From NCBI GenBank assembly GCA_001029755.1, contig CP011214.1, forward strand, positions 65,754 to 129,753: a DNA stretch of 64,000 nt, given 5' to 3'. The notes under the pieces are model-generated. The model searched no databases. It was given only the letters and a program-made list of their open reading frames with translations, and had not been told where the DNA came from. The number at the start of each line of letters is the position of its first letter. Position 1 is the first letter of the stretch. This stretch comes from Candidatus Woesebacteria bacterium GW2011_GWF1_31_35. Its GTDB lineage: Bacteria; Patescibacteriota; Microgenomatia; UBA8517. A program made the translations under genes and the position numbers. This document shows positions 3,531 through 48,821 of the stretch, piece by piece.

Positions 3531-4347
3531 TACTACTATTATATTCTGTTTTCATTTTTTTATACAAATTTACTCCACCAACAGCTAATAACAATAATCC
3601 AGCAGCAATTAGAAAAATTGCAATAATTGGAGGTTTTAAAGTTGTTGATGCTCCTGCAACCATTCCTTCAGGAGTAGATCTATTGCTATTTTGACTAATT
3701 AGTGTTGGCATATTTGTAAAAGTTTCTTCTGTAGTTTCTGTAGGGCTTGGAATTGGTTTTATTGTTGGAGTTTTTGTTGGAGTTGGTTTAGGGGTTGGTG
3801 AAACGGTTGGAATAGTTGTTGGTGTCTTTGTTGGGGTAGAAGTTGGTTCTTGTGTAGGAACTTGTGTTGGTGATGGAGAAGAAGATGGAGTTGGTAATAA
3901 AATTATTATGGCAATTTCAGGTTTTAAAGTATCAACTGTACAAGTCGATCTAAACCTGTGTGCTTTGAGAATATGGTCACCATTAACAACATCTACGTCA
4001 CTACCAATTTTAAAATCGATAACATAAGTTCCATCAGAACTAATTTTCAAATATTTTGAACAAGTTTTATTAATTTCATCTCCACTTAGCGAGACTAGTT
4101 TTATCCAATCTATTCCGACTTTATTATACCCAACATAGCTACCGCCTTCGTCTATTCCAATTCTAAAATACGAATCTCCATTCGGTAAATCTGAAACCAC
4201 TAAAGTTGCAGAAACAACCTGTTCTTTATCAAAAATGGTTGAATTGGATATATTATCAATTGTGAATGAAAATGCTGCATTGATTTTTTGAGGGAAAATT
4301 AAAAAAATTAGAAAAGTTAAAAAAATATATTTTATTTTACTGGGCAT
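3517..4347 (-). CDS. secreted cell-surface protein with a Pro/Thr-rich stalk and C-terminal membrane anchor
   Basis: It has an N-terminal signal peptide, a beta-rich domain, a long PT-rich low-complexity linker (SPSPTQVPTQEPTSTPTKTPTT...), and a C-terminal hydrophobic segment followed by a KKMK tail. No LPXTG-type motif was seen. Confidence 0.45.
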   Translation of the reverse strand: MPSKIKYIFLTFLIFLIFPQKINAAFSFTIDNISNSTIFDKEQVVSATLVVSDLPNGDSYFRIGIDEGGSYVGYNKVGIDWIKLVSLSGDEINKTCSKYLKISSDGTYVIDFKIGSDVDVVNGDHILKAHRFRSTCTVDTLKPEIAIIILLPTPSSSPSPTQVPTQEPTSTPTKTPTTIPTVSPTPKPTPTKTPTIKPIPSPTETTEETFTNMPTLISQNSNRSTPEGMVAGASTTLKPPIIAIFLIAAGLLLLAVGGVNLYKKMKTEYNSSNENT

Positions 4348-24749: not shown

Positions 24750-24822
24750 GGCCCCATCGTCTAGTGGCCTAGGACACCAGATTCTCATTCTGGGAACCTG
24801 GATTCGAATTCCAGTGGGGTCA
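24750..24822 (+). tRNA. tRNA-Glu (anticodon CTC)
   Basis: A hand-folded cloverleaf: acceptor GGCCCCA/TGGGGTC, D-arm GTC..GAC, anticodon stem CCAGA/TCTGG with loop TTCTCAT, T-arm CTGGA-TTCGAAT-TCCAG, discriminator A. CCA is not encoded. Confidence 0.8.
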
Positions 24823-25088
24823 CATATATCGCAAGGTTCAGCGCGACCCGTTGGCCTGCGCTGAAAAGCCCGATACTGCTTGTTAATTTTTGATCGAATT
24901 GTTCGAAATGTCGTTTTAGATCCTGTAATACGCAAATTCCCCTCTACTTTTTCCTTGCATTTAAGCCACGAGAAGAACACCTATCCTAGGTGTTGAGGCT
25001 ATTTTTGAATTGTTATCGCCCTTTTTGACAGAATAAACTTCGTTTTGATGAATGAAAGTGCTTCCTGTCTTTCCTCGGCAGTTCCGAT

Positions 25089-25460
25089 CTAAAGTATGTG
25101 TAAGAGATAGTTTTTTGTCATCTCATTTTTATCTGCTGAAGTTTGAGGAATTCTGTTGAATTCAGCTAGATGTCCATCTATAAATTCCTGATGGAGTACT
25201 TGGGTTTTGAGCCGGTGGTACCGTTCAATATCTTCTTGAATTTTTCTTGTTACTCCGGTGTGATTAAATTTGATTTTGTCGATATTGGCAATTAGTTGTT
25301 TTACCAAGTCGTCTTCAGTAATGTATGGCTCATCGCACTCGTAATTTAATGATCGGCCACAGTGATAATAGGTATGTTTGGCATATCCACCATGTTTTAG
25401 TTTTCTGATTTTTTCCTGAACTTCTTTCAGCCTTTCTTTTATCTCGTCTTCCTTTTTCAT
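25089..25460 (-). pseudogene. serine recombinase C-terminal fragment (remnant)
   Basis: This 123-aa ORF aligns to the zinc-ribbon/C-terminal region of the large serine recombinase at 36670..37989 (HTYYHCGRSLNYECDEPYITEDDLVKQLIANI vs HIYYHCARPLSKCTEPYISEDKLIKQILRYI). The N-terminal resolvase catalytic domain is missing. It lies 266 nt from tRNA-Glu in a GC-elevated segment. Confidence 0.55.
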
Positions 25461-25858
25461 TTCAATTTTTTTAGTAGTTCCTTTGGCGTTTTAACAATTT
25501 CTCTAAAAAGAATCTTTCGTGCATACTCTTCATCTTTGTCTGAAAGAGCATAAACTGGTTTGCCTAGTGCTACTGCGTATCCAATTTCTTGAGTAGTGCT
25601 ATTTCCACAATATCCATCTTTGTTAAAAACAAAAACTACATCAGCATTTTTTATCTTTTGAAAATGGTCAAATGTTAAACCTGCGACTACTTTTTCTTTA
25701 TACGTTTCTGATAGACCCTGGAATTCCTTAATTAATTTTGGTTCACGAAGTGGAAATGGTGGTTCAAACACGACAACACCCAGCTTTCTAAGTTCTGCTG
25801 CAAATTTTATGACTTCTGTTTTGAATCTTCCGCTTCCGCAAATAACAACACTTTTCAT
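25457..25858 (-). CDS. nucleoside 2-deoxyribosyltransferase-like (DNPH1/Rcl-fold) protein
   Basis: A 133-aa protein with MKSVVICGS..., FNKDGYCGNSTTQEIGYAVALGKPVY matching the NDT-family Glu-containing motif. Confidence 0.5.
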   Translation of the reverse strand: MKSVVICGSGRFKTEVIKFAAELRKLGVVVFEPPFPLREPKLIKEFQGLSETYKEKVVAGLTFDHFQKIKNADVVFVFNKDGYCGNSTTQEIGYAVALGKPVYALSDKDEEYARKILFREIVKTPKELLKKLK

Positions 25859-25862
25859 AATT

Positions 25863-26249
25863 TTATTTTAGTCTTTTTACTAGTTCCTTTGGAGTTTTAA
25901 TAATTTCATCAAAGAGAACATTTCTACAGGGTTCATCTTTATCTTCACTAAATACATATATTGGTTTCCCTAAGGCTTCAGCAAATCCCAACTCCATTGT
26001 TCCACTATTGCCCATATAACCATCTTTGTTAAAAATATAAACCACTTCTGACTTTCTAATAAAACTAAAGTGGTGGTGAGTTAACCCCAAGAACGAATAT
26101 CTTTTCAAGTTTGGTGGAAGATCATCTATTCTTCTGTCTTGGTTTAATATTGGTTCATGCACGGTCACTCCAAGTGCCTTGAGGTCTTTGCTAAATTTTC
26201 TGATTTCCTTTTCAAACCTTCTTGAACCACAAATTACAACACTTTTCAT
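25863..26249 (-). CDS. nucleoside 2-deoxyribosyltransferase-like protein (tandem paralog)
   Basis: A 128-aa protein about 50% identical to 25457..25858, with the same FNKDGYMGNSGTMELGFAEALGKPIY motif. Confidence 0.5.
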   Translation of the reverse strand: MKSVVICGSRRFEKEIRKFSKDLKALGVTVHEPILNQDRRIDDLPPNLKRYSFLGLTHHHFSFIRKSEVVYIFNKDGYMGNSGTMELGFAEALGKPIYVFSEDKDEPCRNVLFDEIIKTPKELVKRLK

Positions 26250-27693: not shown

Positions 27694-27826
27694 TATATCA
27701 AACTACATTATTATCATTTGAGACACCCTTTTTATAGTGTCTCATTTGTCTCATTTAGCCTTGATATGATACACTACGAAAGTTACTGGTTATGGGACTA
27801 AAGGGTTCCAGACCCGTATGGCTCAC
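27694..27826 (+). repeat. conserved about 133-nt non-coding element, copy 1 (tandem GTCTCATTT 9-mers plus hairpins)
   Basis: It aligns with 48009..48142. The first 15 nt (tatatcaaactacat) and a 46-nt core (ttttatagtgtctcatttgtctcatttagccttgatatgatacact) are shared with only 2 mismatches. The flanking stretches are about 70% identical, with hairpin GGGT-tccag-ACCC here versus GGT-ctcg-ACC in copy 2. Confidence 0.7.
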
Positions 27827-27896: not shown

Positions 27897-28256
27897 ATGA
27901 TTGAGAATAATAAAAATATACCTCCAGTGGAGACGGGGAATTTATTGGTCATGATTAGGGAAGCCACAAAAAGTGATTTAATTATTGCGAACTGGGATGA
28001 ATATGATAAATCATTTAATGATTTTACAAATGGATTTAAGGCCTCTGGTCATTTAGTTTTCGGATATCTTGATGGTAATAATGAATTTTATCCAGCAAAT
28101 TCTAATAAAGACATCTTCTATTCATATGATCTTACAAAAAGTATCAAAATAATTTCATGTAATCCTCAACCAATTATTCAAAAATTTAAAATTGAGGGTT
28201 ATGACAAAAATACAGGGAAAATAATTTTTGAAACAAACAACACTTCAAATAATTAA
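27897..28256 (+). CDS. hypothetical protein
   Basis: A 119-aa AT-rich ORF with no motif. Confidence 0.3.
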   Translation: MIENNKNIPPVETGNLLVMIREATKSDLIIANWDEYDKSFNDFTNGFKASGHLVFGYLDGNNEFYPANSNKDIFYSYDLTKSIKIISCNPQPIIQKFKIEGYDKNTGKIIFETNNTSNN

Positions 28257-33635: not shown

Positions 33636-33709
33636 TGCGGGGTCGTATAACGGCAGTACACATCCCTCTGGAGGATGTTATCTTGGTTCAAATCCAAGCC
33701 CCGCAGCCA
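33636..33709 (+). tRNA. tRNA-Gln (anticodon CTG), CCA encoded
   Basis: A hand-folded cloverleaf: U1-A72 acceptor TGCGGGG/CCCCGCA (as in bacterial tRNA-Gln), anticodon stem CATCC/GGATG with loop CTCTGGA, T-arm CTTGG-TTCAAAT-CCAAG, discriminator G, then CCA. Confidence 0.8.
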
Positions 33710-33865: not shown

Positions 33866-34561
33866 ATGCTTAGCCTTAAAACATTGGATGTAGACCAGAG
33901 AACGGTTCTTATAATAAAACTCTTACAAGAACAGGTTGTCGATCAACGAAAAAAACTTGCGTATTGGAGAGATCTTACCAAACAACCATCTCAGATAGAC
34001 ACGGGTTATATCTCACAATATTTGCTTAGCTTAATTACATCCATATATGGTGGACTAATGAGAGGTAAAGGAACAGATCTTGATGATGGTTCAGAAATTA
34101 AAGCAGCAAACTTTTTAGATTCTTTAGATAAAAAGGGTGCCACAGCGCCCAGATGGAATTTATCGTCAAATAACTTAAAAACAATGGAGTCCTTCTTATC
34201 ATTCCCGGCTCTATACTTGGTGTCAATGGATCTTAACCCCGCTGGTAAATTTAGAACTCGAGTTTGGAAACTTGACCCAAATAAACACATTCTATTTAGA
34301 AAAAGGTATCTAGAATGGATGGAAAAATTGGGTAAGGTTAAACTTGGAGATCCGGGAAGGCCAGGTATAAATTTTCAATTATTTCCACCTCATAATAAAA
34401 CAGATGAAAGTTTCGCCAGACATGGAAATGGTAGAACAAATGGCTTTTCTCCAATTAAAATCGAACTTGAAGGTGTTCAGGGAGCAAAGAAAATACTACA
34501 TGCAGAAGAGAATAACGGTGTTATAGAAGTTATTTACCTAGATTCCAACATTACTGTATAA
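33866..34561 (+). CDS. putative type II restriction endonuclease (PD-(D/E)xK-like), partner of adjacent methyltransferase
   Basis: A 231-aa protein with the acidic cluster GTDLDDGSEIK (D...ExK). It converges on, and overlaps by 24 nt, the 3' end of an N6-adenine methyltransferase. The assignment rests mainly on genomic context. Confidence 0.3.
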   Translation: MLSLKTLDVDQRTVLIIKLLQEQVVDQRKKLAYWRDLTKQPSQIDTGYISQYLLSLITSIYGGLMRGKGTDLDDGSEIKAANFLDSLDKKGATAPRWNLSSNNLKTMESFLSFPALYLVSMDLNPAGKFRTRVWKLDPNKHILFRKRYLEWMEKLGKVKLGDPGRPGINFQLFPPHNKTDESFARHGNGRTNGFSPIKIELEGVQGAKKILHAEENNGVIEVIYLDSNITV

Positions 34562-36637
34562 ATTTTCGAACAGCAATTTAATATTTCTGTTTGCGTCATA
34601 TTTTTTCTCCTCATAATTCTTTATTTTTTCAGCAATCTTAAGCAGTTCTTGTTCGCTAGAACTATTCTTTTTGGGCCATGGAAGTTTGATATCCATTAGC
34701 TCAGAATCCTTAATTCTATTATGCGAGGATGACGTGCCAGAGGTTAATGATAAAACTTGTTTTAAAACAATATCAGTTAAGAGTAGTGTCTTAAGTAAGT
34801 AAGTATACTTTTCTTCATATGGCTTAATAATTTCAAATTCGCTAGAGCAGGTTAGGATTATGTTTGTATCAAACACTACAGTTACTCTTGGAATTCGTGG
34901 GTTAATCTTAGAAAACAATATGTCACCTGGGTAGCACTCTCTACCTGGAGAAATAGGATTGTATTTCATAACTTCATCTACTTTGATCGTAGAGTCTTCA
35001 TTAATATGTAAAATGCTTATATGCTTGACCGTATCAGAAGCAGATTTCTTTTTTCTATTTTTTGTACAAAACTCAGCGATCTTTTTTAGGGGAATGATTT
35101 CAAATTCCTCTGAGTTAATTTTTTGGAAATTCGACACCGTATGTAATCTATCTGCACTATAGAAATTAGCATTCCATTTCCCATTAATGAGTTGTTCAAA
35201 CGGGAATATTACCACTGAGGGCTTCGTACTTAAAACCTTAATTCCGTGATGTTCCTTTGCTGAATTATATAATTCAGCAATTGTTTCCAAGTCATTAGTT
35301 CCAGAATAAATTTTGGTTGCAGTTCCTACCTTTTCTTTAACTTCATAACCTATATCGCTTGCTGTGGCCATAAATATTCCATTTTGTTGAAATTTTTGCT
35401 CATATGGCTTCTGAATATACAAAATAGAGCATTTAGTTCTAGTTCCTGCTTGCGCAAAAGTAACCGCTGGTAAATCAATAACTCCTCGCAAAATAAACCT
35501 TGTCGATAAAAGGTCTCTATAAACCTCATTCATTCCTTTCGATGACACTATTCCATCTGGAACAACTATTAAAAGTCTTCCGCCTGGCTTAAGAAGTTTC
35601 AAACATCGATCAAGCATGATTAGTTCTGAATAGAGAGTTTTAACATTGGAGTATTCTTTAATTTCTGAAAGAAATTCGTATTTATCAGATTCGGAAATAA
35701 TTTCGTCTATATTAAATTCGGCACCAAAAGGTGGGTTTGTAAGAATTAAATCAACCTTACCCACGTATTGATCTATGAAAGAATCCCCCAATATACTATT
35801 CCCTTGTTGAACCAGTTCAGGATTAAGCCCAGATAACAAATAGTTTATTTTAGACATCCTGACCATCCGGTCGACTTTGTCTTGACCTATGAATCCATTA
35901 TTTTTTCTTAAAGAAATTATTTTGCCTTTATTTTTAATATTCGAAGATTCAATAACTTCGACCAATTTTTTATATGAGTAGATAAGAAATGAACTGACAC
36001 CACTTGTTGGATCAAGAACTATAAACGAATCAGGGTTTTCAGATAAAAGGTTGTCGTAAGAAGACTTGTCGTTTTTAATATCTTTAAATGCAATCTCGAT
36101 AGCTGTGTTCACGACTTCCACCGGGGTCATGTATTGGGCGTCTTCTTTATGGTTTCTAAAGTTATCTCGAACAAAATGTCCAAAAGCTTCATTTAATATA
36201 TCTATATTTTTATTTGTGCCTCCATTCTCTGTAAGATTAATGTTATTAATGACTTTAATAATTTTTATCGCAAAGTCATTATCAGTAGTCTGAATATTGA
36301 GGTGGGCGTTTGATCCAAAAACGTTAGAACCGTCTTTGTTAATGAACATCTTATTTTCAGCTATGTCGGAAAACACAGATTGGAGGGCATTTGCAATGTT
36401 TTTCTTATCCCCAAATTTGGCTAGAGCAACCTTTTCTAAATGGGCTAGATCTAGAGAACTAGAGTTATTTTTAAGATCAAAGTATTTAATAACGAGCAAT
36501 TTAAGTATCTCATCAAGCTTCGTGTTGGCGTCATCATACCGCCCTGTTTTGTGAAATTCTTCTTTTAACTCATCCAGGGCAGTATTAAAATTGTCTAGAA
36601 GAATTTCGTTAGATGGTTTTAGGGTAAGTTGAGTCAT
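34538..36637 (-). CDS. N6-adenine DNA methyltransferase (gamma-class, HsdM-like catalytic domain with fused C-terminal target-recognition region)
   Basis: It has motif X-like AQYMTP, motif I DPTSGVSSFL and motif IV LILTNPPFG. The C-terminal 300 aa are non-catalytic. Total length is 699 aa. Confidence 0.75.
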   Translation of the reverse strand: MTQLTLKPSNEILLDNFNTALDELKEEFHKTGRYDDANTKLDEILKLLVIKYFDLKNNSSSLDLAHLEKVALAKFGDKKNIANALQSVFSDIAENKMFINKDGSNVFGSNAHLNIQTTDNDFAIKIIKVINNINLTENGGTNKNIDILNEAFGHFVRDNFRNHKEDAQYMTPVEVVNTAIEIAFKDIKNDKSSYDNLLSENPDSFIVLDPTSGVSSFLIYSYKKLVEVIESSNIKNKGKIISLRKNNGFIGQDKVDRMVRMSKINYLLSGLNPELVQQGNSILGDSFIDQYVGKVDLILTNPPFGAEFNIDEIISESDKYEFLSEIKEYSNVKTLYSELIMLDRCLKLLKPGGRLLIVVPDGIVSSKGMNEVYRDLLSTRFILRGVIDLPAVTFAQAGTRTKCSILYIQKPYEQKFQQNGIFMATASDIGYEVKEKVGTATKIYSGTNDLETIAELYNSAKEHHGIKVLSTKPSVVIFPFEQLINGKWNANFYSADRLHTVSNFQKINSEEFEIIPLKKIAEFCTKNRKKKSASDTVKHISILHINEDSTIKVDEVMKYNPISPGRECYPGDILFSKINPRIPRVTVVFDTNIILTCSSEFEIIKPYEEKYTYLLKTLLLTDIVLKQVLSLTSGTSSSHNRIKDSELMDIKLPWPKKNSSSEQELLKIAEKIKNYEEKKYDANRNIKLLFENLYSNVGI

Positions 36638-36669: not shown

Positions 36670-37989
36670 TCAACTATAACTATCTGCATCAACCTTTTGT
36701 TCTTGATATGCAGATATAAAGCGATCCTTAATACACAACTGTGTATTTAAAGCTTTTACGAGATCTCTTTTTTCTTGAATTGTTCCACTAGTAAGAATAT
36801 ACTTGGCGAAATTTACAGGGTCTAAAGGTCTACTGTTTGGATTAATATCTTGTTCATAAAGTATCTCTTCCCTTATAGATAAATATGAGGATGCGCTTGT
36901 TTTTAGCACTTCAGTAAACTTTAGAAAATTTGGATGGGCAATATTCATAAAGTTTATATATCGCAAAATCTGTTTTATCAGTTTATCCTCACTAATATAT
37001 GGTTCAGTACACTTACTAAGTGGACGTGCACAATGATAGTAAATATGTCTTCTTGGTTCTGCCCATTTTCTCTTTCTCAGTCGATCCTCCCCAATAATAT
37101 TTGATCCGCAATTGCCACACTTAAATAAACCTTTAAATGTAATCACTTTTTCTCCCCAGCCTGATTTTGGGTATGTAATTAACTGTTCTTGTACTTTATC
37201 GAATACTCCTTTAGTAACTAAGGGTGGATGTTTTCCTTGATACCACACTCCACCTCCGACAGGGTATTCAAATCTCCCATAATAGAAGGGGTTTTTGAGC
37301 ATCTGGTAAATCTGACTGAGCGCGACTCCTTTTCCTTTCCGTGTTGTTATCTTAATCTGATCAAACCATCTTTTGATCGTTCTTCCACTATCACCATTCT
37401 TTGCAACCCTCTCAAACATCTCGGTAATAATGTAGCCTCTGTCTGGATCGACAATAATGTCCTTCAATCCACCCATAGCACGGTTGTAGTAGCCGATTGG
37501 AGGTGGCCCAGGTCTCCACCCCATTGAACATTTTGCTCGGATACCTCTTTTAACATTAATCCCTTTCTGGTCGTTCTCAAGCTTTGCTTGCGAGCAGAGA
37601 ATCATAAGTAAGAACTTTTCATTCGGATTATTTGAGAAACTTTGCGAGAAAGTTTTGATTTGATGTAGTTTCTCTTGATCCATAAGATCCACAAGCATTC
37701 CGAGATCTCCGGCGTTTCTACTAAGTCTGTCTGGTGCCCAAGTCAGTATGCCTGTAAACATTCCAGCTCTTATGTCAGTAATAAGCTGACTAAACACTGG
37801 TCTCTGCCCTGACATTTTTGCTGAATGACTTTCTTTGCGGATTTCTTTTATGAAGAAATTTTCTCGTACTGCCATTTCGCTCATCTCTTTAATCTGGGAA
37901 TCTATCGACATTGCTTGACGCTCATCGTCCTCACTCGATTTTCTGGCATAGAGACAGTACTCGGTTGATGTTACTAAGTTTGGTTCCAT
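36670..37989 (-). CDS. large serine recombinase (integrase)
   Basis: The N-terminal resolvase domain has the catalytic Ser context YARKSSEDDERQAMSIDSQ. The recombinase domain, zinc ribbon CGNCGSN...YYHCARPLSKC and C-terminal coiled-coil follow. Confidence 0.85.
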   Translation of the reverse strand: MEPNLVTSTEYCLYARKSSEDDERQAMSIDSQIKEMSEMAVRENFFIKEIRKESHSAKMSGQRPVFSQLITDIRAGMFTGILTWAPDRLSRNAGDLGMLVDLMDQEKLHQIKTFSQSFSNNPNEKFLLMILCSQAKLENDQKGINVKRGIRAKCSMGWRPGPPPIGYYNRAMGGLKDIIVDPDRGYIITEMFERVAKNGDSGRTIKRWFDQIKITTRKGKGVALSQIYQMLKNPFYYGRFEYPVGGGVWYQGKHPPLVTKGVFDKVQEQLITYPKSGWGEKVITFKGLFKCGNCGSNIIGEDRLRKRKWAEPRRHIYYHCARPLSKCTEPYISEDKLIKQILRYINFMNIAHPNFLKFTEVLKTSASSYLSIREEILYEQDINPNSRPLDPVNFAKYILTSGTIQEKRDLVKALNTQLCIKDRFISAYQEQKVDADSYS

Positions 37990-43288: not shown

Positions 43289-43903
43289 TTATTCAGATAA
43301 TTTTCCTAAAACTTTTCCCTGGATCATAATTTCCCTGGCAATTATCGGTTTGTATTCAGAATTATGACTCTCAGGCAGGAGAACTACATATTCACTCATC
43401 TTTTTAAACCTTTTTAGGGTTGCTGTCTCTTCGTTAGGGTTGAACGCCACTACAATATCGCCATTGTCAGGCACTGGTTGTGGAACAACTATGACTATAT
43501 CTCCAGTGTTGAGGCCAGCCTTGGACATACTGTCTCCTTTGACTCGTAGTAAAAACGCATCACTTCGGCCATGGAGTTCAGATTTTGAAACATCACGATA
43601 GCCTTCGATGTTTTCCTGAGCGAGGGCTGGTTGACCAGCTCTAATCTCGCCAACCAAGGGTAGGTTTATTACTTCCTGATCTGGGAGAGGAGCGAGTAGA
43701 ATCTTTATAGCTCTACGAGCCTGTTTGTCACGATGTATATATCCTAAATCCTGTAATTTCTCTAACTGAATGGATACGCCTCGAATAGATTTAATCTGAG
43801 TTGCCCTCATTATTTCGGGTATCGATGGCGAGTAGCCATTCTCTGATTGAAACTTAGTGACAAAAGAAAAAACTTTCCTGACGTTGTCGGTGAGATTATT
43901 CAT
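43289..43903 (-). CDS. LexA-like repressor (wHTH plus S24 peptidase)
   Basis: It has the N-terminal LexA DNA-binding fold (ENGYSPSIPEIMRATQIKSIRGVSIQLEKLQDLGYI) and a cleavage-site-like AGQP. It also has the catalytic Ser in GDSM and Lys in LKRF. The start was taken at the MNNLTDN ATG (43903) because the ORF track's start is a TTG. Confidence 0.75.
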   Translation of the reverse strand: MNNLTDNVRKVFSFVTKFQSENGYSPSIPEIMRATQIKSIRGVSIQLEKLQDLGYIHRDKQARRAIKILLAPLPDQEVINLPLVGEIRAGQPALAQENIEGYRDVSKSELHGRSDAFLLRVKGDSMSKAGLNTGDIVIVVPQPVPDNGDIVVAFNPNEETATLKRFKKMSEYVVLLPESHNSEYKPIIAREIMIQGKVLGKLSE

Positions 43904-43923
43904 AGTGGTAATTAATTCTACCA

Positions 43924-43952
43924 TTGACAATTCTACTTAGCAAGTATATAAA
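43924..43952 (+). promoter_or_regulatory. near-consensus sigma70-type promoter TTGACA-N17-TATAAA
   Basis: The -35 TTGACA is at 43924..43929 and the -10 TATAAA at 43947..43952, with exact 17-nt spacing, about 50 nt upstream of the DUF2188 gene. Confidence 0.4.
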
Positions 43953-44003: not shown

Positions 44004-44243
44004 ATGGCAAACTACAACGTAACAAAAAATTCGGATGGAGGGTGGGACGCAAAGCGAGATAATGCCCAAAGATCGAGCTTCCATGGAAATACCCAACGTG
44101 AGACGGAGACTGTAGCTAAACAATTTTCAAAAAACTCCTGCGGAGGAGAAGTTAGAATCCAAGGTAGAGACAATAAATTTAGGGACAGCGACACTGTTCC
44201 TCCAGCTCATGACCCCAATCCTCCCAGAGACAAGAGACACTAA
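44004..44243 (+). CDS. DUF2188 family small protein
   Basis: It matches the DUF2188 consensus over its full length (NSDGGWDAKRDNAQRSS...GNTQRETETVAKQFSKNSCGGEVRIQGRDNKFRDSDTVPPAHDPNPP). An SD (aagga) is upstream. Confidence 0.6.
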   Translation: MANYNVTKNSDGGWDAKRDNAQRSSFHGNTQRETETVAKQFSKNSCGGEVRIQGRDNKFRDSDTVPPAHDPNPPRDKRH

Positions 44244-46004: not shown

Positions 46005-46586
46005 ATGTTTCTATCTGATAAAGCGATTCAAGAGTTTAAGGACATAGTTAAAAAGGAAAAAGGGGTTGAGTTATCAGATGCCGAAGCTCGGGATCAGGGA
46101 GAAAGACTTGTTTCATTTTTCGAAATATTAATGGAGGTTTCTCAGGTAGAGCTTAGACGAAAGAAAAGACTCGAGAAAGAACCGGAAGGTTTTCATTTAA
46201 ATGAAGGTGAGGGCCCGTATAACTGTCGGGTTTGTTATGAATCTGTATCGGGAAAAGGGGTGTGGTGGGACTTAAATGGTATTAAATGCCTAGATTGCCA
46301 AAGAAATATAAACGAAAGCATTATCCCAGCCGAAATATGTGATAACGACAAATTATGGATAAAAGACTGGCAATTTCAGTCTGATTATGACATTCATCCT
46401 TCAACAAGAAGAAAACTCATCAGAACAGGCTTATTACATGGCCGCGATCTAAAAAGAGACAATGGATCAATATACTATACTGTTTATCTGGTAAACGAGA
46501 ATTTGGAGTTCTTGAAAAAATATCCTAAAAAAAGAAAAGAAAATGTAGAGTTTATCGCAGTTGGGAAAAATAAGGTTCAACTATGA
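46005..46586 (+). CDS. hypothetical zinc-ribbon protein
   Basis: It has CRVCYES...CLDCQ (four Cys) and a basic C-terminus, and is translationally coupled to its neighbours. Confidence 0.4.
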   Translation: MFLSDKAIQEFKDIVKKEKGVELSDAEARDQGERLVSFFEILMEVSQVELRRKKRLEKEPEGFHLNEGEGPYNCRVCYESVSGKGVWWDLNGIKCLDCQRNINESIIPAEICDNDKLWIKDWQFQSDYDIHPSTRRKLIRTGLLHGRDLKRDNGSIYYTVYLVNENLEFLKKYPKKRKENVEFIAVGKNKVQL

Positions 46587-48008: not shown

Positions 48009-48142
48009 TATATCAAACTACATCAGTATCAATTTGTGAAACAGCCTTTTATAGTGTCTCATTTGTCTCGTTTAGCCTTGAAATGATACACTTAGCTTGC
48101 AGGGTTATAAGGATCTAATGGGTCTCGACCTGTATGCTCAGC
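48009..48142 (+). repeat. conserved about 133-nt non-coding element, copy 2
   Basis: See copy 1. The tandem 9-mers here are GTCTCATTT and GTCTCGTTT, at 48056..48073. Confidence 0.7.
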
Positions 48143-48302
48143 AAGTATATGCACCCCTAGTGACCCGGGTGCCTCGAATAGCCCGTGTTTTCCGTCTAAA
48201 GAGTCATTTTGGAAAGTGAGAATTATAACCATCACCTACCCTCAAAAATCCTTCGTTCGAATCCCTACTTTGTTTGAGTTTATGGGATATAATTGACTAG
48301 AT

Positions 48303-48821
48303 ATGATCAAAAAGCTTCTCAAAAACAGATATTTGATTGTCGGCGGGGTTCTTCTGGTTCTTGGGGTTTCAGTGTTTCTCCTGTCTGAGAAACAACCGAA
48401 TATGGATAATTTCAAAGCCCCAGGAAGGAGTTGGAACTCTTCCAAAAAAGTAGAGGACTATTTTATTGAAAAATTGAGAATGACCCCCCAAGAAGCATCT
48501 GAAATAAGATCAAAACCAGGAGTTGATGGAACTATTGATTTAAGGATAACCACAAATACCACTTTAGGTGGAGTTATTGGAAATCTTTATTATTATGGTT
48601 TCATTAGAGATGAAAATTCTTTCCGCTATGCATTAGATCACACAAAAGACACGACTCCCAGCGATAAGGCAATTAAAGTTGATGTAAATAAAACAATTGA
48701 CACTAATGCAGAATACAGGATTTCAGAAGAGATGAGTGCATGGCAAATTGCTGACATTTTATTAAATAGACCTTCCGGACATTTCGCTTTTGATGAATAT
48801 AATTATTTCTTTATGCCCTGA
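48303..48821 (+). CDS. membrane-anchored protein with MltG/YceG N-terminal-like domain (host-side paralog)
   Basis: It has an N-terminal TM and LYYYGFIRDENSFRYALDHTKD...SAWQIADILLN. The first 150 nt or so are GC-richer than the rest of the gene. Confidence 0.4.
   Translation: MIKKLLKNRYLIVGGVLLVLGVSVFLLSEKQPNMDNFKAPGRSWNSSKKVEDYFIEKLRMTPQEASEIRSKPGVDGTIDLRITTNTTLGGVIGNLYYYGFIRDENSFRYALDHTKDTTPSDKAIKVDVNKTIDTNAEYRISEEMSAWQIADILLNRPSGHFAFDEYNYFFMP

Follow-up and report, generated by a model that had tools for sequence, protein, structure and literature searches.

A putative attachment and control region with a tRNA 3'-end mimic at the borders of tRNA-associated islands in Patescibacteria

What kind of element occupies two similar intergenic segments (copy A, 27694-27826, and copy B, 48009-48142) in a 64,000-nucleotide (nt) stretch of Candidatus Woesebacteria bacterium GW2011_GWF1_31_35 (contig CP011214.1, positions 65,754 to 129,753; this whole stretch is called the window below)? 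A sequence-only reading of this DNA noted the two copies, each to the right of a tRNA gene, and offered three explanations: a structured small RNA or leader, a terminal recombination or packaging site of a mobile-element family, or iteron-like protein-binding repeats. The best reading of our analysis is that the element is a DNA control and attachment region and not a structured RNA. More specifically, we think it probable, with considerable room for doubt, that it is the attachment-site-proximal control region (attR/attP) of tRNA-targeting integrative islands of Patescibacteria. We propose that these islands are prophage-like or satellite-like, often carry defense cargo and are inserted beside tRNA 3' ends.

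The two copies and their relatives

Both segments are present as the sequence-only reading described them. Global alignment of the copies gives 110 identical columns of 139 (79%), against 76 ± 3.9 (maximum 87) when copy B is shuffled, and a 46-nt core (27730-27775 and 48047-48092; repeat family D9) contains 2 mismatches (96% identity). The 15-mer TATATCAAACTACAT matches exactly at 27694 and 48009 only, and a core 35-mer searched with up to 3 mismatches finds copies A and B as its only 2 sites, with none expected from 100 shuffles. The tandem GTCTCATTT units and AGTGT...ACACT arms are confirmed in the sequence, as is the small hairpin, whose stem is GGGT/ACCC in one copy and GGGT/ACCU in the other. 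The copies are intergenic and precede unrelated plus-strand open reading frames (ORFs; 27897-28256 for copy A and 48303-48821 for copy B), and the element is not the 5' untranslated region (UTR) of a duplicated gene. On the same strand, a tRNA-Glu gene lies 2.9 kb upstream of copy A and a tRNA-Gln gene 14.3 kb upstream of copy B, again as reported. The G+C-rich islands that the copies were said to close survive in part: G+C rises strongly at 37-48 kb (0.39-0.44 versus a background of ~0.30), whereas 33.7-37 kb is near background and 24-28 kb shows a slight rise only (0.34-0.37).

The element belongs to a family that extends across Patescibacteria, also known as the candidate phyla radiation (CPR). 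The 20-mer GTGTCTCATTTGTCTCNTTT, searched with N at position 17, occurs in at least 119 stretches of a species-representative genome set (one genome per species), where our own arithmetic from the collection size gives a chance expectation of ~4 matches. Nearly all of these records are labeled Patescibacteria, from many classes, and the 20-mer is also found in several viral contigs; a core 16-mer matched several viral contigs as well, with similarity running well past the seed. Removal of duplicates left 127 distinct elements. A 14-mer from the element, in either orientation, had no match in the literature, and keyword literature searches gave no description of such elements in CPR bacteria.

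A few element-bearing records carry other labels as deposited, including ‘uncultured Gammaproteobacteria’ (several metagenome-assembled genomes, for example L066, L076, L077 and L095), Dehalococcoidia, Terriglobia and Bacteroides. The copies labeled Dehalococcoidia (L101, L105, L109, L127 and L128) overlap ORFs and seem to belong to another context, with multiple copies. Among the viral contigs, L011 (IMGVR_UViG_3300020195_001307, 26,245 nt) consists of ~2.9 tandem copies of a 9,117-bp unit, which is probably a small circle. Each unit bears one element and codes for a terminase-like ATPase, two methylases, a NUDIX protein, a ribonucleotide reductase and a PfkB kinase, with no recombinase.

The tRNA-end mimic and the islands it borders

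The argument for an attachment site begins at the 3' block of the element, termed M3, which resembles the 3' end of a tRNA. Its typical form is GG-TTCNAGA-CC followed by ~4 nt, ~7 nt, one base and CCA. In 23 of the 28 elements with an encoded CCA, the T54-like T and the A76-like A are separated by exactly 23 nt, the distance found in tRNA; a reverse-complement control for this geometry gave 3 matches, none of them at 23. The tail of M3 follows the type of the upstream same-strand tRNA, with forms for Gln (..CTCAGCCA), Ser (..CCCGCCA), Lys, Arg and Asp. For example, a ..CTCAGC(C)A tail recurs with an upstream same-strand tRNA-Gln in L082, L143 and copy B of the window. Across the other loci, we counted ~24 upstream tRNAs on the strand of the element versus 2 on the opposite strand.

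Repeats shared by the tRNA end and the M3 end support the same link. In L092, a perfect 35-nt repeat joins the tRNA-Ser end and its flank to the M3 end and its flank (4 nt of tRNA plus 31 nt of flank), and shorter repeats occur in L166 (14 nt, also perfect, tRNA-Lys), L070 (8 nt) and L095, L181 and L115 (7 nt each). The longest word shared by the tRNA end and M3 averages 6.6 nt, compared with 4.8 nt for mismatched pairs. Because the T-loop-like part of M3 is unlike that of the resident tRNA and is conserved among elements, we infer that it is carried by the element. Two simpler descriptions of M3 were rejected. It is neither a genuine piece of a tRNA nor the 3' half of a tRNA-like RNA with an acceptor stem, as the T-stem and acceptor partners are unconserved and ARAGORN finds no gene there, and it is not an exact copy of the resident tRNA 3' end, as the last few bases alone match.

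Similarity among elements is lost directly after this block. The viral contig L011, L078 (Woesebacteria) and L102 (Paceibacterota) share one identical sequence that runs from the inverted box through ..GGTGCTCCGC, beyond which they are unrelated, and L197 and L199, close relatives of the window copies, diverge directly after ..CTCAGCA. The proteins coded downstream of the element do not cluster and are host-like. Upstream, three gene families recur, encoding a Zn-ribbon protein (29 loci), a large serine recombinase (13 loci) and a ParB-methylase (11 loci), and terminase-like, helix-turn-helix (HTH) and defense-type cargo genes are also present in the islands of several loci. This arrangement of mobile genes on one side and host-like genes on the other, together with the loss of similarity and the tRNA-end repeats in relatives, supports the earlier suggestion of a terminal recombination site of a mobile-element family.

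The recombinase is linked to the element in both position and orientation. By tblastn, large serine recombinase homologues are found in 21 element-bearing loci and lie on the strand opposite to the element in 20 of them. In three mini-islands (L091, L072 and L070), the tRNA-to-M3 interval is just 3-4.5 kb, the order is tRNA, one to three genes, recombinase and element, and the recombinase start is 72-190 nt from the 20-mer. Wherever a recombinase was found it is of the serine type; no tyrosine integrase was found, although no systematic search for one was made.

In the window, island B contains genes for a recombinase, a terminase-like ATPase, methylases, a LexA/S24 repressor and the Zn-ribbon protein. 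It may run from the end of tRNA-Gln (33709) to the end of M3 (~48145), or may reach ~48184 because a GACC...CCTCGAAT motif there is common to L196. We propose that island A is a 3-kb remnant extending from tRNA-Glu (24823) to 27826; its 123-residue recombinase remnant clusters with full-length recombinases of other loci. Island A also contains adjacent paralogous genes for nucleoside 2-deoxyribosyltransferase-like proteins of 133 and 128 residues (25457-26249, minus strand), whose 3'-terminal coding regions, at the low-coordinate ends, share a 64-nt stretch of 80% identity. In island B, a MamI-type restriction endonuclease and an N6 DNA methylase (33866-36637) lie between tRNA-Gln and the recombinase; as their G+C content is at background, unlike the rest of the island, this cargo module may have been acquired separately. 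In other samples, assemblies of the same population break in the copy A core or inside island B: L193 (European Nucleotide Archive ERZ28564009 scaffold_77) ends at approximately window position 27772, and L194 and L195 begin inside island B. These breaks fit either confusion of the assembler by the 46-nt repeat or strain heterogeneity at the islands.

Additional motifs surround the proposed junctions. The tRNAs at island starts are followed by a shared motif, AGTATCGR ... GACC-N6-CCTCAAA, which unrelated tRNAs do not have. The GACC-N6-CCTCRAA part occurs after M3 in copy B and L196, after the 20-mer in long forms of the element and after the putative attL tRNAs in L092, L095, L070 and L115. 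In our own reading, these motifs could be additional partial sites or what is left of earlier insertions. When the flanks that follow the tRNA and M3 were compared by BLAST with all collected loci, there were no matches. In the Saccharibacteria ‘minimal’ forms, intrinsic terminators lie 20-60 nt past GCCA, and each may be the displaced terminator of the target tRNA, now following M3.

Right after tRNA-Glu (24833-24861), AAGGTTCAGCGCGACCCGTTGGCCTGCGC resembles the M3 of copy A (GGTTCCAG-ACCCGTATGGCTC), and the next sequence, AAAAGCCCGATACTGCTTG, is similar to the promoter-like block of the long forms described below; this M3-like stretch may be a remnant of an earlier insertion. After copy B, the region 48160-48290 contains GACC-N6-CCTCGAAT, then TGGAAA ... 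CCCTCAAAAATCC and then GTTCGAATCCC (48255-48265), and forms a degenerate module of the long-form type that includes a T-loop-like piece and lies immediately upstream of ORF 48303-48821. In L125 (601-676) and L085 (+183 to +272 from the 20-mer), a tRNA gene starts 3-30 nt past the M3 end, such that the mimic stands in line with real tRNA genes as if filling a slot in a tRNA cluster.

The box array and its candidate binding protein

Upstream of M3, the element carries AATGAGACA 9-mer boxes, two in tandem (seg2 and seg2') and one or two in inverted orientation. The tandem boxes are universal among members by construction of the 20-mer search. An upstream inverted box (seg1; AATGAGACAC with up to 2 mismatches) is present in 77 of the 127 elements and absent in 39%, with spacers that cluster at 10-12 and 18-20 nt, and a downstream inverted box (seg3; AATGAGACA-like) is present in ~33 of the 127 and absent in ~74%. 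The GAGACA core of seg1 is conserved at 91-100%, the base opposite the first G of seg2 varies in 35%, and seg3 shows no compensatory pattern relative to seg2'. In 49 of the 127 elements, the 14 nt preceding the 20-mer include a TATA. There are at least ten variant classes of the boxes of the form GT-NNN-ATTT repeated twice, with the triplets CTC, AAC, GCC, TGC, TCC, CAG, CGC, CCG, CTT and CCC, and in most classes the upstream inverted copy and the second tandem copy have changed in step. As the second tandem copy also changes, usually without a partner, the simpler explanation is that a single protein recognizes all of the boxes. We favor the view that the tandem 9-mers are protein-binding repeats, a view that draws on the box statistics, the variant classes and a co-occurring protein with a weak excisionase-like fold match. 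For these 9-mers, the protein-binding part of the sequence-only reading is the favored one, whereas ‘iteron’ in the sense of a replication origin is unsupported.

The region between the boxes and M3 is variable, being 13 nt in the Saccharibacteria minimal forms and ~85 nt and well aligned in the long forms. The subfamily to which copies A and B belong has a short version of this region (TTTAGCCTTGA.ATGATACACT ... TTATAAGGA). Where copy A has TTATGGGAC, the alignment places a rightward TGGAMA-N17-TAnAAT block of the long forms, which in our own reading is promoter-like; a simple promoter scan around the -10-like block of copy B (48105-48113) detected nothing. Upstream of the boxes, a sequence related to the subfamily 15-mer, ATCAAACTA(C/T)ATCA, occurs in L196, L197, L199, L100 and L011.

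Other identities for the boxes were considered and set aside. The minus strand reads GACACTATA, which recalls a T7/SP6-like promoter, a possibility ruled out by the position of TATA in a variable spacer and its absence from many members. The variable triplet does not act as an anticodon matched to the target tRNA, as the CTC class adjoins Ser, Gln, Lys, Arg, Asp, Glu and Met tRNAs. The NrdR, CIRCE and LexA-type operators misfit in spacing and sequence. Two 8-kb loci, L069 (for example at minus strand 4924, 5528 and 5630) and L119 (for example at minus strand 1079, 1170, 1240 and 1354), have four or five different tandem-box arrays each. These arrays, drawn from the CTC, TGC, TCC, CAG and CTT classes, lie only a few kb apart, and every one of them has an inverted box to match; the pattern looks as though heterospecific elements had been inserted serially at a single hot spot.

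The best candidate for a box-binding protein is the co-occurring Zn-ribbon protein coded in island B. This protein of ~190 residues has an N-terminal helical hairpin and a Zn ribbon in addition to a C-terminal domain that gives weak fold matches of the winged-helix excisionase/MerR type (AlpA/Xis/RdfS; BldC). Such excisionase-type proteins typically bind direct repeats beside attachment sites and repress nearby promoters. Sequence-profile searches with the family against Pfam, PHROGs, NCBIfam and PDB sequences returned nothing meaningful, and the family comprises 92 homologues at E ≤ 1e-5. Four homologues on long contigs were picked without regard to the DNA motif, and all four have a short-form element downstream on the same strand, directly past the Zn-ribbon stop codon in two of them. 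Three of six distinct viral loci with a Zn-ribbon gene have no adjacent boxes. An alternative candidate regulator of the boxes is the LexA/S24-type repressor of island B (43289-43930, minus strand). It is divergent from a DUF2188 gene (44004-44243, plus strand); this pair is found in L198 too, and L197 likewise has a LexA/S24-type repressor.

Short mixed arrays of this kind are known from the operators of omega (pSM19035), MetJ and BldC, in which boxes of 7-9 bp in mixed direct and inverted orientation lie at promoters and are bound cooperatively, head to tail. The CPR array is like these ribbon-helix-helix and BldC operators in having very short, mixed boxes, and BldC is among the weak fold matches of the Zn-ribbon protein. 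The CPR box sequence and spacing rules differ, and the CPR binder is a candidate.

We propose the following model. The box array, tandem and inverted, surrounds the TATA spacer and overlaps the promoter-like hexamers, and it would most likely be bound by an element-encoded protein. The Zn-ribbon protein could control a divergent promoter, which in many relatives would be that of the recombinase or the Zn-ribbon gene, and/or could shape the recombination complex, as Xis, Cox, TorI and AlpA do in the P arm. The promoter-like block would point, and if active fire, rightward across the junction. M3 (~25 nt), with its tRNA geometry from T-loop to CCA and last bases equal to those of the target tRNA, would be the element-borne arm (P) of the attachment site, used by the linked recombinase, with a crossover position that is likewise predicted. 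Following integration, an intact tRNA would stand at the left island end, and M3 joined to host DNA would form the right end (attR). The features of both copies are given in Table 1.

Table 1. Coordinates of the two element copies and associated genes in the window
Feature	Position	Strand	Comment
Copy A, upstream 15-mer TATATCAAACTACAT	27694..27708	+	subfamily-specific conserved block
Copy A, inverted box seg1 TTTGAGACAC	27717..27726	+	
Copy A, 10-nt spacer CCTTTTTATA after seg1	27727-27736	+	contains TATA
Copy A, tandem boxes seg2 + seg2', 20-mer GTGTCTCATTTGTCTCATTT	27737..27756	+	
Copy A, degenerate inverted box seg3 TATGATACA within fixed block TTTAGCCTTGATATGATACACT	27765..27773	+	block kept in A/B subfamily
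Copy A, TTATGGGAC, degenerate form of subfamily -10-like TTATAAGGA	27790..27798	+	15-member subfamily alignment
Copy A, M3, tRNA-3'-end mimic GGGTTCCAGACCCGTATGGCTCAC	27803..27826	+	proposed attR arm, right end of 3-kb island remnant
Copy B, upstream 15-mer TATATCAAACTACAT	48009..48023	+	
Copy B, degenerate inverted box seg1 TGTGAAACAG	48035..48044	+	>2 mismatches to family box
Copy B, tandem boxes GTGTCTCATTTGTCTCGTTT	48054..48073	+	
Copy B, inverted box seg3 AATGATACA	48082..48090	+	
Copy B, -10-like TTATAAGGA	48105..48113	+	subfamily alignment
Copy B, M3, tRNA-Gln-type 3'-end mimic GGGTCTCGACCTGTATGCTCAGCAAG	48120..48145	+	proposed attR arm of 14.4-kb island
Partial-site-like motif GTGACCCGGGTGCCTCGAATAGCCC (GACC-N6-CCTCRAA), 3' of copy B	48160..48184	+	
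tRNA-Glu(CTC)	24750..24823	+	ARAGORN, Rfam; proposed attL side, island A
tRNA-Gln(CTG)	33636..33709	+	ARAGORN, Rfam; proposed attL side, island B
Large serine recombinase, island B (Resolvase + Recombinase + Zn_ribbon_recom)	36670..37989	-	Pfam; 439 residues
Serine recombinase remnant, island A, 123 residues	25089..25460	-	weak Zn_ribbon_recom match
Zn-ribbon protein gene, island B	46005..46586	+	C-terminal domain with weak winged-helix matches

Apart from these features, the window contains GTTGGT-rich short direct repeats at 1209-1340 and 3752-3871 (30-nt family D1, 6 copies) within long ORF regions, which are probably repetitive coding sequence.

Weighing the attachment region against its rivals

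Several points weigh against the attachment-and-control reading, in general or for this window in particular. The family statistics were drawn from loci chosen by the exact 20-mer. Some tRNA-to-element intervals contain ordinary-looking metabolic genes, box spacers of 8 to ~31 nt are loose for a simple dimeric operator, and a double change in L198b would also fit pairing of seg2' with seg3. The flanking repeats in the window are weak: island B has CAGC(C)AAG and then a loosely similar GGTGCC.TC.A block, and island A has TCAC only, the M3 of copy A ending in ..TCAC as does tRNA-Glu (..GGGGTCAC), with a downstream flank unlike that of the other copies. In a metagenome collection that may not hold the organism, we found neither the predicted empty site of island B (tRNA-Gln ...CCCCGCAGC / AAGTATATGCACC...) nor its predicted circle junction (...CCTGTATGCTCAGC / CAAGACGTGCAAG...), and exact-protein look-ups with the genes flanking both copies listed only source contigs that carry islands. 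As the flanking repeats are weak and the junctions were not found, the claim for the window itself rests mainly on the family.

The choice of recombinase raises difficulties of its own. Large serine recombinases normally need just 2 bp of identity at the crossover, act at attP sites of ~50 bp with imperfect inverted half-sites, rarely use tRNA genes and work with directionality factors that bind the enzyme and not DNA. The window contains no inverted copy of M3, including at the left island ends, and visual inspection of the sequence around the break points of L078 and L092 shows no consistent dyad. Moreover, the 35-nt repeat of L092 looks more like the identity block of a tyrosine integrase, and the pairing of recombinase and site is putative. 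The absence of inverted half-sites weakens M3 as a canonical large-serine-recombinase attP but not as an attachment arm. In comparison with the prophages and cassettes phiC31, Bxb1, A118, SPbeta and SCCmec, the window recombinase has the same architecture of Resolvase, Recombinase and Zn-ribbon domains, and in relatives its gene lies near one element end beside the proposed attachment region, as in prophages of this class. By contrast with those prophages, the CPR islands have no inverted partner of M3 and have repeats of up to 35 nt.

The alternative that survives best, although we consider it unlikely, is a small RNA gene or RNA switch on the plus strand, running from the boxes to the CCA-like end, either tRNA-like or like the immunity RNAs P4 CI and P1 C4, with specificity set by the variable triplet. 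Such an RNA could account for the promoter-like hexamers upstream of M3 in long forms, the terminators 20-60 nt after GCCA in minimal forms, the exact T-loop-to-CCA geometry, the co-variation of inverted and tandem boxes across variant classes, the changes in L107 and L198b that preserve seg2'/seg3 pairing, and the variable loop lengths, which hairpins tolerate. Single-sequence folding also favors it for copy A, which folds better than shuffles (z = -2.75), but not for copy B (z = +0.88). A structured RNA or leader is nonetheless not borne out by the other tests. Rfam matched the two tRNAs only across the whole window at the gathering threshold, and at E ≤ 10 gave sub-threshold, chance-level matches only for copies A, B and L011. 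RNAalifold found no pairs among 15 subfamily members and no consensus for the minimal or short forms, and in the long forms a 3-bp hairpin only. For three helices drawn by hand in the 15 subfamily members (the inverted box against the first tandem box, the second tandem box against the downstream box, and the hairpin of M3), standard pairs fill 64.6% of cells versus 64.4% in shuffles (216 of 500 reach the observed value), and covariation is 0.109 versus 0.101 (101 of 500). Pairs with G-U on the minus strand were suggestive at first but failed in the family. The lack of compensatory substitutions, which the sequence-only reading had counted against its proposal as a whole, bears on the RNA reading only.

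The anatomy of the element argues in the same direction. The 5' half of the M3 ‘hairpin’ is unconserved, whereas its GACC is conserved; the acceptor-like strand has no consistent partner; uncompensated U-U mismatches occur in L004 and L172; and seg1 and seg3 are frequently absent, as noted above. The terminators are explained if they were displaced from the target tRNA, and the M3 tail varies with the neighboring tRNA, as an attachment site would. The RNAs P4 CI and P1/P7 C4, with their seqA/B/C and a/b sites, do resemble the CPR element in having a repeat with complementary copies upstream and downstream on one strand and variants that co-vary. They are, however, RNase P-processed RNAs with defined stems, whereas the CPR element has no structure or covariation signal and no match to the C4 family of Rfam.

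A more ambitious version, to which we give little credence, makes the boxes and the tRNA-like block a single RNA device, a short plus-strand transcript in which two tandem 9-nt GU-NNN-AUUU specificity units would be joined to a T-loop/NCCA module that recruits tRNA-processing enzymes. The device would pair in trans or cis with AAAU-N'N'N'-AC copies to set immunity or a choice between excision and maintenance, P4-CI-like, with the triplet as a code. The RNA-structure tests, which used sequences selected for an invariant 20-mer, weaken this reading too.

Equally doubtful is a box array that serves as a replication origin (iterons or a rolling-circle nick site) or as a pac/cos site for the small terminase, with its position at the island end a coincidence. 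Direct and inverted repeats do flank an A+T-rich spacer, terminase-like and HTH genes occur in several islands, L011 resembles a 9.1-kb circle present as a 2.9-copy concatemer with one element per unit, and the box variant classes resemble incompatibility groups. No Rep/HUH or other initiator family is found among the recurrent neighbors, however, and the 3-4.5-kb mini-islands consist of a recombinase and one to three small genes, with no terminase or initiator. There are also just two tandem 9-mers, and typical iterons are longer and more numerous. Finally, the orientation of the element is fixed relative to M3, the island end and the recombinase gene, which an attachment and control region explains and an origin does not.

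An autonomous repeat resembling a miniature inverted-repeat transposable element, or a duplicated promoter or 5' UTR, unrelated to integration, would fit the discrete ends and ~100% identity in unrelated contexts (L011/L078/L102), the position of both window copies upstream of plus-strand genes and the assembly break inside copy A in L193, but is highly improbable given that there are no terminal inverted repeats or target-site duplications, just 1-3 copies per locus, unrelated downstream genes, tight linkage to upstream gene families and recombinase orientation, and tRNA-end repeats.

Placing the proposed attachment and control region among known systems clarifies which of its parts are familiar. 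In lambda, the Xis sites are arranged as X1-X1.5-X2, and the P2 Cox boxes are 9-bp direct repeats. The CPR element is like the P arms of lambdoid phages, P2 and KplE1 in having short repeated sites tens of bp from the core and an arm that ends in attR. In those systems, the sites serve a small winged-helix recombination directionality factor and double as operators of neighboring promoters, as would be expected here, and the candidate CPR factor shows weak fold similarity to the AlpA/Xis/RdfS excisionases, although it differs from the lambdoid factors in its size of ~190 residues and its N-terminal hairpin and Zn ribbon. In KplE1, for example, the TorI sites overlap the intS promoter (PMC2951348). 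The lambdoid, P2 and KplE1 systems use tyrosine integrases with arm-type sites, whereas the CPR islands are linked to a large serine recombinase.

Among integrative islands, the closest parallel is offered by the tycheposons of Prochlorococcus (Hackl et al., bioRxiv 10.1101/2020.12.28.424599). These cargo-carrying or satellite-like elements integrate into tRNA genes, with part of the tRNA left at their distal end, and accumulate as tandem arrays beside the tRNA; 27 of 937 have a large serine recombinase. Like tycheposons, the CPR islands begin at a tRNA and finish with a tRNA-like piece, have defense or metabolic cargo and form arrays (L069, L119 and L198). Unlike tycheposons, they reside in another host phylum with no shared genes detected, their partial tRNA is a conserved mimic (GGTTCNAGACC...) that agrees with the target only in its final 4-14 nt and in up to ~30 nt of flank, this mimic is preceded by a conserved box array, and the recombinase is of the serine type in all cases found. 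The concept of tRNA-targeting islands and of P arms with excisionase sites is known; what sets the CPR family apart is its conserved tRNA mimic, a box array whose triplet varies, its serine recombinase and its host phylum.

More broadly, Patescibacteria make up a sizeable fraction of bacterial diversity, yet their genomes are tiny, genetic tools for them are nearly lacking and little has been written on their mobile elements. A DNA signature formed by the 20-mer, or a GT-NNN-ATTT variant of it, and the tRNA-end mimic that follows marks the right border of islands that carry restriction-modification, Abi/HEPN, SIR2-like, STAND and metabolic cargo and adjoin tRNA genes for at least six different amino acids (Gln, Ser, Lys, Arg, Asp and Glu). 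This signature would help to delimit islands in fragmented metagenome bins and to account for places where assemblies break, as in the contig ending within copy A. The box variant classes suggest an immunity or specificity system, and were the RNA reading true after all, the element would be a new kind of programmable regulatory RNA. If the linked serine recombinase does act on the tRNA-mimicking arm, CPR bacteria would have in it a natural candidate tool for site-specific integration.

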